Source: Escherichia coli | GTDB taxonomy: Bacteria > Pseudomonadota > Gammaproteobacteria > Enterobacterales > Enterobacteriaceae | Strand: one strand, 5' to 3' | NCBI RefSeq assembly: GCF_050320075.1 | Contig: NZ_CP190018.1 | Length of the DNA stretch: 64,000 nt | Part shown: one piece after another, positions 41,445-41,580 of the stretch | Layout of the letters: every line of letters begins with the position of its first letter | Position numbering within the stretch: position 1 is the first letter of the stretch | Notes under the pieces: model-generated | Databases searched by the model: none | What the model saw: only the letters and a program-made list of their open reading frames with translations | What the model was told of the DNA's origin: nothing | Made by a program: the position numbers and the translations under genes

Positions 41445-41580
41445 ACTTGTCCCAAAATGCTCCTAACTTGTCCCAAAATCACCTTAACTTGTCCCGCTCT
41501 TGTCCCACTTTTTCTGATATTACCCAATATAATTCAGTATGTTATGTGTGTTTCTCACAGGTTGGGACAGGTGGGACAAG
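41445..41580. repeat. iteron cluster B (ACTTGTCCC repeats), between SSB-like and primase-like genes
   Basis: Four direct copies at 41445, 41466, 41487, 41499 (21/21/12-bp spacing), ~50-bp AT-rich spacer, then two inverted copies GGGACAG / GGGACAAG (41563-41580). Same motif as cluster A. Confidence 0.7.

Follow-up and report, generated by a model that had tools for sequence, protein, structure and literature searches.

A putative two-module replication origin beside a DUF927 helicase gene in a small phage satellite of Escherichia coli

Phage-inducible chromosomal islands (PICIs) and Staphylococcus aureus pathogenicity islands (SaPIs) have replication origins located directly 3′ of the replication gene (PMC6092414, PMC9371898). 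A pri–ori segment of EcCICFT073 drives plasmid replication, and this ability is lost when either ori or pri is deleted (PMC6092414). The SaPI Rep is a self-loading helicase whose C-terminal winged helix reads iterons lying just past the rep open reading frame (ORF), on both sides of an AT-rich centre (PMC9371898). Here we analysed a 64,000-nt stretch of Escherichia coli DNA (contig NZ_CP190018.1 of assembly GCF_050320075.1; referred to below as the window) that carries an ~8-kb island with a gene for a 711-aa DUF927 helicase, Rep, and two clusters of short repeats, cluster B beside the Rep gene and cluster A 2.2 kb away. On the strength of sequence comparisons, we consider it very likely that cluster B forms the Rep-proximal part of the origin from which this 8-kb Gram-negative PICI replicates, and probable that cluster A is a second, mirror-image module of that origin. 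This reading builds on the position, geometry and conservation of the repeats, on their covariation with the Rep C terminus, and on the concerted swap of both modules between islands.

An initial sequence-only reading had marked 41445–41580 as four direct and two inverted repeats between a gene for a single-stranded DNA-binding protein (SSB) and the end of a primase-like gene, and had proposed an origin of replication or a multi-site operator. The site was correctly placed, and we amended some details. The feature does start at 41445 and ends at 41581 instead of 41580; the start-to-start spacings of the direct copies, given as 21, 21 and 12 bp, are 21, 21 and 11 bp; and the neighbouring gene encodes a DUF927 helicase without a recognisable primase domain. 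Three exact copies of ACTTGTCCC and a fourth direct copy, TCTTGTCCC, are followed by the predicted spacer, announced as ~50 bp and measuring 57 bp (70% A+T vs. 50% for the island), and then by the two inverted copies, 9 bp apart (Table 1). Four copies on the plus strand, an AT-rich spacer and two copies on the minus strand reproduce the layout of PICI origins. The Rep stop codon occupies 41606–41608 and the first iteron ends at 41581, placing cluster B 25 bp past the stop.

The exact 9-mer occurs five times in the window, only in clusters A and B, against 0.31 expected from shuffles (none of 100 shuffles reached five). Of its core, GTCCC/GGGAC, the 7,979-bp island has 11 copies, always within two stretches of ≤130 bp that correspond to the two clusters; the remaining 7.7 kb of the island has no copy, compared with 11.4 ± 3.4 expected under a first-order Markov model (none of 1000 simulations gave zero). 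Across the whole window, neither 7-mers nor the 9-mer with one mismatch was enriched, and the signal therefore lies in clustering and phasing and not in motif count.

A comparison with about 50 further DUF927-Rep loci (E. coli variants, one Klebsiella element, 17 loci from other Enterobacterales and 35 from viral contigs; sources include E. coli, Klebsiella, Serratia, Pantoea, Erwinia, Yersinia, Citrobacter and others) showed that the arrangement is general. An iteron array was found 25–135 nt (mostly 25–70) past the stop codon of every intact Rep gene with downstream sequence, that is, immediately 3′ of the initiator gene in the window and likewise in about 50 homologous loci. The geometry is common to these genes: a pair of copies spaced 9 bp, ~62 bp of AT-rich DNA, and then inverted copies at 11, 21 and 21 bp. 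This 11/21/21 spacing was kept in all seven iteron families (ACTTGTCCC, TGTYGTCCC, ACTTRTCCC, TAACCCAC, TAACCCGC, TGAACCAAC and TGAACCGR), with one unit absent or degenerate in a few loci. Variants of the form ACA(C/T)G(T/C)G(A/C)G stand at the position of the alternating pyrimidine–purine element of the window in most DUF927 loci compared. These results support the origin proposed at the outset. A motif search had been suggested with it; in the window the 9-mer was confined to clusters A and B, and in the relatives arrays followed homologous Reps. One locus was unusual in structure: in Yersinia pekkanenii (L026), three TGAACCAAC arrays lie ~5.7 kb and 1.1 kb upstream of, and just past, the end of Rep (8846), and the Rep match is spread over 2.8 kb, a pattern suggestive of elements in tandem or nested in one another, or of an insertion within the gene.

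Islands with other replicases have other repeats. The E. coli PICI CFT073 carries nine copies of TRTCTACC, all at its ori, vs. 0.31 expected; O26 11368, which has a RepA-type replicase, carries AGTGGGGA at its ori; and the origin of EcCIRM13514 (L036, 7600–7850) uses TGTTCACC, the same octamer as the type 1 iteron of phage P4 (verified in NC_001609). Every type of replicase is thus paired with iterons of its own, placed directly past its gene, and because EcCIRM13514 uses the P4 octamer, its replicase is probably P4-alpha-like in specificity. The AT-rich spacers of three E. coli PICI origins with unrelated replicase types share AATTCA(G/A)TA(T/C)(G/A)TTA (window 41528–41541; L002 6798–6815; L036 7650–7665), which may be a host-factor site. 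The EcCIRM13514 version, TATCAATATGTTA, fits the consensus for integration host factor (IHF). The minus strand of the module A spacer, AATCAATTTGTTA, fits that consensus, WATCAANNNNTTR, as well, a match made by eye; the IHF-like matches of these two spacers are not kept across all families and serve as a lead only.

In these alignments, the iteron family tracks the C-terminal ~110 residues of Rep only. The Reps of the window and of L048 are 98.6% identical in the N-domain, 94.5% in the core and 37.1% in residues 601–711, and their iterons are ACTTGTCCC and TAACCCGC, respectively. L048 and L019, with 73.8% identity in the core and 68.6% in the C terminus, both have TAACCC. At the nucleotide level, the window is 93.6% identical to L057, L048 and L071 up to Rep codon ~601; homology is lost over 41392–41938 and returns in the SSB gene at 85%–86%. 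The replaced stretch consists of the Rep C-terminal codons and module B; the part of Rep predicted to read DNA is therefore passed on together with its sites as a single ~550-bp cassette. Sequence data can hardly come closer than this to an experiment that swaps specificity. Such inheritance identifies Rep, and not AlpA or PerC, as the predicted reader of the repeats; the sequence-only reading had named the 711-aa protein and AlpA for binding tests. A SaPI-type rule, in which the C-terminal domain sets iteron specificity, thus describes these Reps as judged by covariation. We also considered the Rep N-domain as the reader and rejected it: L005, L006 and L007 share an iteron family despite different N-domains, and the nearly identical N-domains of the window and L048 go with different iterons.

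Rep itself is a helicase of the Rep/Cch (DUF927-type) family that is found in SaPI-type Rep/ori pairs. Pfam DUF927 covers aa 174–435 (E=9.5e-46), PDB 8tch_A, a "Pathogenicity island protein", matches aa 231–604 (E=1.1e-14), and phrog_1139 matches aa 121–700; a Cch-type helicase, PDB 5dgk_A, was found at E=0.0025. The NCBIfam Cch1 model matches at E=4.9e-10, far below the cutoff of the model, making Rep a relative and not an equivalog. An AlphaFold 2 model of aa 522–711 (pLDDT, the predicted confidence score, of 65) has a beta-alpha-alpha-beta-hairpin-like tail. No Pfam domain was found in the N-terminal ~145 residues. Codons 1–145 (43307–43741) are hypervariable, with 24%–74% identity in 50-residue windows between alleles that are otherwise ~86%–100% identical, and the N-domain variants assort independently of the core and of the C terminus.

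The repeat motif had been noted to recur in cluster A, and this second cluster proved to be a real counterpart: it has the design of cluster B in mirror orientation and switches family together with it. Compared with L057, L048 and L071, module A (39165–39300) is replaced just as module B is, while the adjoining segment from element X, a (TA)n tract, to the cohesive-end (cos) site is 87% identical. In relatives of a contiguous type (L005, L006, L007, L016, L019–L023, L029–L034 and about a dozen viral contigs), the A-type module abuts B and consists of two or three copies phased at 21 bp, ~52 bp of AT-rich DNA, three inverted copies phased at 9 bp, and then TTTTGTATATATAC. The two modules of these relatives make up one ~330-bp mirror-symmetric origin, in which module A and the TA-rich X lie 20–40 nt upstream of the start of the next gene. 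Since A and B are contiguous halves in the relatives, module A of the window is a displaced half and not an independent invention; it is a contiguous-type module moved 2.2 kb downstream, past SSB, ProQ, PerC and a 69-aa ORF, to the end of the island, ~75 bp from a cos site resembling that of phage phiP27.

The split layout recurs in independent lineages with matching halves. The distal A matches B, 2.2 kb apart, in both the window and L018; in Serratia L027, where B follows rep, the matching A is 4.6 kb off (TGAACCAAC); and L048, L057, L060, L064, L067 and L080 have matching TAACCCGC modules 7.5–10.5 kb apart. The iteron of distal A thus equals that of B in split islands of three iteron families. 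In the six TAACCCGC split loci, distal A is followed by sequence homologous to window 39018–39164, which contains cos. Among island copies differing by up to 8%, the split layout, the spacing of A and its iteron cores are all kept. Because A swaps its iteron family with B and the Rep C terminus while cos stays homologous, we conclude that the distal A of the window is a predicted Rep-binding partner site. A conversion of the contiguous into the split layout through recombination at X is plausible. We found no description of a split PICI origin in the literature, although this origin itself may already figure in PMC6092414 Fig. 2a; the supplementary text of that paper gives no iteron sequence.

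Such an origin might fire as follows. The C-terminal ~110 residues of Rep would recognise the iteron (ACTT/ACCT)GTCCC, and Rep would fill two convergent arms, a 9-bp arm packing two or three sites tightly and a 21/21/11 arm aligning three or four sites along the same helical face. It would then melt or bend the 57-bp AT-rich spacer (alternatively, the (TA)n and ACACGCG tracts beside it would melt) and load itself there as hexamers; the SSB encoded just downstream would coat the unwound strands, with host enzymes supplying the remainder. Two mirror-image modules could load one helicase each, giving bidirectional replication. Where the modules lie apart, Rep-mediated looping, as proposed for P4, would be needed; a displaced A would still be bound by the same Rep, and the pair would act like P4 crr (beside the replicase gene) and ori (kilobases off). 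Binding, melting and helicase loading, and any need for A, are inferred in this scheme.

Several observations weigh against a two-module origin read by Rep. Pfam and PHROG searches of the 711-aa Rep found no recognisable primase domain, so that priming is not accounted for; the 933-aa homologue of Serratia L027 has a full primase-like N-terminal region that the 711-aa Rep lacks. Foldseek with the low-confidence C-terminal model (pLDDT 65) gave a best hit of E=0.58 and left the winged helix unconfirmed. The third iteron of the 21-bp arm of window A, ACTTGTCCT at 39240, differs by one decayed base from the ACTTGTCCC that stands there in six related islands, a change confined to this copy. Orphan A-type modules with TAACCCGC lie beside cos in L007 (362–514), L008 (9069–9221) and L009 (9070–9222), where the resident replicase is non-cognate (in L007 a DUF927 protein of the GTCCC type, in L008 a primase of the CFT073 type that goes with TRTCTACC); DUF927 Reps that match TAACCCGC occur in other loci (L039–L080). 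L006, in turn, has three modules, one of them surplus. The orphans and the surplus module imply that a distal module is not always functional. Finally, module B alone satisfies a minimal SaPI-type origin, and A may thus be dispensable.

The last of these points leads to the strongest rival explanation, in which B alone is the origin and A a relic without function, an orphaned half that remained after recombination at X near cos. The orphans, whose iterons are foreign to the resident Rep and which were evidently created by recombination at the shared (TA)n element, are what this explanation expects, as are the surplus module of L006 and the degenerate third iteron of window A. X is common to origins of different specificity and can therefore serve as a recombination point, and B by itself has at least two iterons on each side of its AT-rich centre, the SaPI minimum. 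A dead remnant would, however, hardly be expected to be replaced in concert with B relative to L057 and L048, to carry exactly the iteron of B and the Rep C terminus in split islands of three families, or to keep its spacing and iteron cores among copies differing by up to 8%. We regard a relic A as rather unlikely.

Two further explanations assign the repeats to other processes. They could form mainly a transcriptional operator array, through Rep autoregulation, control of the SSB–ProQ–PerC operon, or AlpA or PerC sites. Iterons in plasmids often double as operators; B is placed between the end of the Rep gene and the start of SSB, and the A plus X of contiguous relatives, so close to the next gene start, is promoter-like in look. 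A consensus scan of the gene strand found no sigma-70-like promoter in 41370–41605 or at X, however, and the repeats track the Rep C-terminal domain as a ~550-bp cassette while the flanking SSB gene and Rep core stay homologous. Moreover, the equivalent region of EcCICFT073 is required for plasmid replication (PMC6092414). We consider a mainly regulatory array improbable, though a regulatory side role is conceivable. Cluster A could also serve in packaging, as a cosB-like set of sites for terminase or Rpp whose likeness to B is secondary. Its distance of ~75 bp from a phiP27-like cos, its repeats, IHF-like AT spacer and inverted repeats, which recall lambda cosB (order R3-I1-R2-R1; PMC6739421), and the fact that PICIs are known to carry their own cosB all lend this some appeal. 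Yet a cosB of lambda type sits on the side of cosN where the small terminase is encoded, and in phiP27 that gene (terS) stands across cos from the position of cluster A. In islands of the contiguous type, modules of this kind adjoin B, well away from any cos; the A iterons follow the Rep C terminus; and the annotated genes of the island include no terminase or Rpp homologue. With terS on the wrong side and the module type found beside B far from cos, we rejected this reading of A, which we hold to be very improbable.

A broader proposal can be made tentatively, although we think it less likely than not: that DUF927-Rep satellites have a two-part origin whose halves work kilobases apart, one fixed to rep and the other movable and recurrently placed at the far island end beside cos, the distal half being a true partner (a second helicase-loading site, or a crr-like enhancer acting via Rep looping). 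Were this so, the distal half might link replication with packaging, the C-terminal domain of Rep would evolve jointly with its two iteron loci as an exchangeable unit of specificity, and orphan distal modules in other PICIs could permit in-trans replication by the Rep of a co-resident island.

The island lies in an Escherichia chromosome in the order ccmH, narP, yejO, island, tRNA-Pro, yejM, and spans ~38867 to 46868 (~8 kb) with an imperfect 39-nt direct repeat at both ends. This repeat, at the published yejM–narP attachment site, matches the attachment (att) core given for yejM–luxR PICIs in PMC6092414 Table S1, and the gene order is syntenic with the reference PICI EcCICFT073, with DUF4222, rep, ori, SSB and PerC common to both. 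All genes are on the minus strand: integrase, an AlpA-like helix-turn-helix (HTH) protein, an ash-family pseudogene, an Icd-like gene, a small ORF, DUF4222, Rep, then B, SSB, a ProQ/FinO-like gene, PerC, the 69-aa ORF and A. The set has the hallmarks of a PICI: int, alpA (the HTH protein has weak PHROG matches of AlpA/excisionase type), a one-directional operon with rep, and a PICI-specific att. No capsid, terminase (TerS) or Rpp homologue was found among the annotated genes. Based on the att core and the synteny, the island is classified by sequence as a small Gram-negative PICI, a phage satellite without capsid or terminase genes, and its cos site points to a cos phage of HK97/phiP27 type as the putative helper.

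The query stretch (island plus short flanks) was present in 52 of 5,426 complete E. coli genomes, and E. albertii has a 95.8%-identical island at the same site in which the split layout is kept. Rfam found no known RNA family at cluster A or B. Within the ash-family pseudogene it placed a C4 antisense RNA (44485–44572, minus strand, 78.7 bits) and isrK (44597–44673, minus strand, 61.6 bits), amounting to a P4/P1-type RNA immunity module within a PICI. Chi sites (GCTGGTGG) are strongly over-represented in the island (38956–45605), which holds 12 of the 26 window sites in 8 kb, eight of them on the minus strand, leaving 14 in the other 56 kb; shuffles of the whole window give an expectation of 2.3. 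Two Chi sites near cos (38956–63 and 39034–41) are both on its low-coordinate side. Serratia L027 retains the Chi site that marks the inner margin of module B, with CTGGCTGGTGG at the homologous place.

Table 1. Features of the putative origin and its island (positions in the window; ".", no strand)
Feature	Position	Strand	Description
Island end, att direct repeat	38867–38905	.	Partner at 46830–46868; 77% identity, 7,963 bp apart
cos site	39052–39132	.	80.7% identical to annotated cos region of Stx phage phiP27; counterpart of the 10-nt cos feature of the phiP27 record is GGGGCGGACA, 39082–39091
Element X, (TA)n tract	39142–39164	.	TTTTTCGTATATATATACAAAAC; ends module A in most DUF927 origins (L016, L019, L021, L023, L026, L033, others)
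Module A (cluster A, 39166–39290), 9-bp-phased arm	39166–39192	+	Three iterons, ACCCGTCCC, ACCTGTCCC, GCCTGTCCC; GTCCC at 39170, 39179, 39188 (9-bp spacing)
Module A, AT-rich spacer	39193–39239	.	47 bp, 70% AT
Module A, 21-bp-phased arm	39240–39290	-	ACTTGTCCT at 39240–48 (degenerate; relatives ...CCC), then ACTTGTCCC at 39261–69 and 39282–90; 21-bp spacing
Cargo between modules	39825–40908	-	69-aa ORF 39825–40034; PerC family regulator 40091–40375; ProQ/FinO-like 40372–40908
SSB gene	40944–41369	-	First gene downstream of module B; TIGR00621, 61 bits (cutoff 53.95); RefSeq annotation
Module B, inner edge	41411–41421	-	Degenerate iteron TGTCCACC (41411–41418) overlapping Chi site GCTGGTGG (41414–41421)
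Module B, distal arm	41445–41506	+	ACTTGTCCC at 41445–41453, 41466–41474 and 41487–41495 (21-bp steps), then TCTTGTCCC at 41498–41506, 11 bp after the third
Module B, AT-rich spacer	41507–41563	.	Presumed melting/bending region; contains AATTCAGTATGTTA, conserved in E. coli PICI origins of other Rep types
Module B, Rep-proximal arm	41564–41581	-	Two iterons 9 bp apart, ACCTGTCCC (41564–41572) and TCTTGTCCC (41573–41581); pair 25–135 nt past Rep stop (mostly 25–70) in mapped loci
Alternating pyrimidine–purine element	41593–41604	.	TACACGCGAGAG; conserved; between Rep stop codon and first iteron
Rep, 711-aa DUF927 helicase/initiator	41606–43741	-	Hypervariable N-domain aa 1–145, helicase core 146–600, C-terminal specificity domain 601–711
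Integrase and AlpA-like HTH regulator	45078–46767	-	Integrase 45523–46767, regulator 45078–45269; other island end; adjoins tRNA-Pro 46974–47050

These results would give an unannotated 240-bp intergenic region a predicted function and make of an 8-kb island, carried by about 1% of the complete E. coli genomes, a minimal PICI that has a replicon and a cos of its own. They also outline a code of specificity in which seven iteron families pair with as many variants of the Rep C terminus; among the pairs are natural exchanges of this domain on helicase cores that are ~94% identical. These satellites lend themselves to work on how initiators that are self-loading helicases recognise their origins, and the code could help to predict incompatibility or cross-replication between co-resident satellites. 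We find the locus moderately interesting, for the recurrent split layout with a half-origin beside cos and for an unusually clean record of a co-swapped initiator domain and iterons.

Among known systems, the closest are the origins of Gram-negative PICIs, EcCICFT073 and its relatives (PMC6092414), which share with our locus the kind of island, the listed att site, the synteny, an ori directly 3′ of the replicase gene, and iterons of both orientations, including 9-bp-spaced pairs, flanking an AT-rich stretch. They differ in the replicase, which is a "DNA primase family" protein (CFT073) or a RepA-type helicase there and a DUF927 helicase here, and in iteron sequence; the iterons of CFT073 and O26 11368 also stand at a single locus, whereas here a second module lies 2.2 kb away beside cos, and our island is without capsid and terminase genes. 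SaPI Rep–ori and the Cch proteins of the staphylococcal cassette chromosome SCCmec share with our locus a homologous helicase core, an ori straight after the rep ORF, opposed iterons around an AT-rich centre and, as covariation suggests, a C-terminal specificity determinant. In contrast to the penta- and hexanucleotides of SaPIs, the iterons here are 8–10 bp long and strictly phased at 9 and 21 bp; two modules in mirror image stand where SaPIs have one, the host is Gram-negative, and the winged helix is unconfirmed.

The likeness to the ori and crr sites of satellite phage P4 that the sequence-only reading had pointed to, with a different repeat, holds for function and position but not for family. 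As in P4, two clusters of one repeat lie kilobases apart, here at 41445–41581 (B) and 39166–39290 (A). In the P4 record, crr (4291–4590) is directly 3′ of the alpha gene and ori (9086–9809) is 4.7 kb off, and both carry TGTTCACC, including pairs 9–11 bp apart and in both orientations. P4 alpha is a helicase initiator with a C-terminal DNA-binding part. In position the analogy is exact, with B in the place of crr and A in that of the remote site. It does not extend to family, because no similarity between Rep and alpha was detectable (BLASTP E=1.5); the iterons differ too (TGTTCACC in P4, ACTTGTCCC here), and crr is a 120-bp tandem duplication, whereas our distal module sits beside cos and is contiguous with B in relatives.

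Iteron plasmids with remote repeat sets (R6K alpha/beta/gamma, P1 incA, F incC) likewise have phased direct repeats beside an AT-rich region, and in such systems a distant set could act by looping or handcuffing mediated by the initiator. Compared with these plasmids, the initiator here is a hexameric-type helicase and not a Rep_3/RepA winged-helix protein, the element is integrated and phage-induced, and no dependence on DnaA boxes is evident. Taken together, the candidate origin is, as its sequence reads, a cognate Rep–iteron PICI origin that extends the known design and overturns nothing in the current understanding of such origins.

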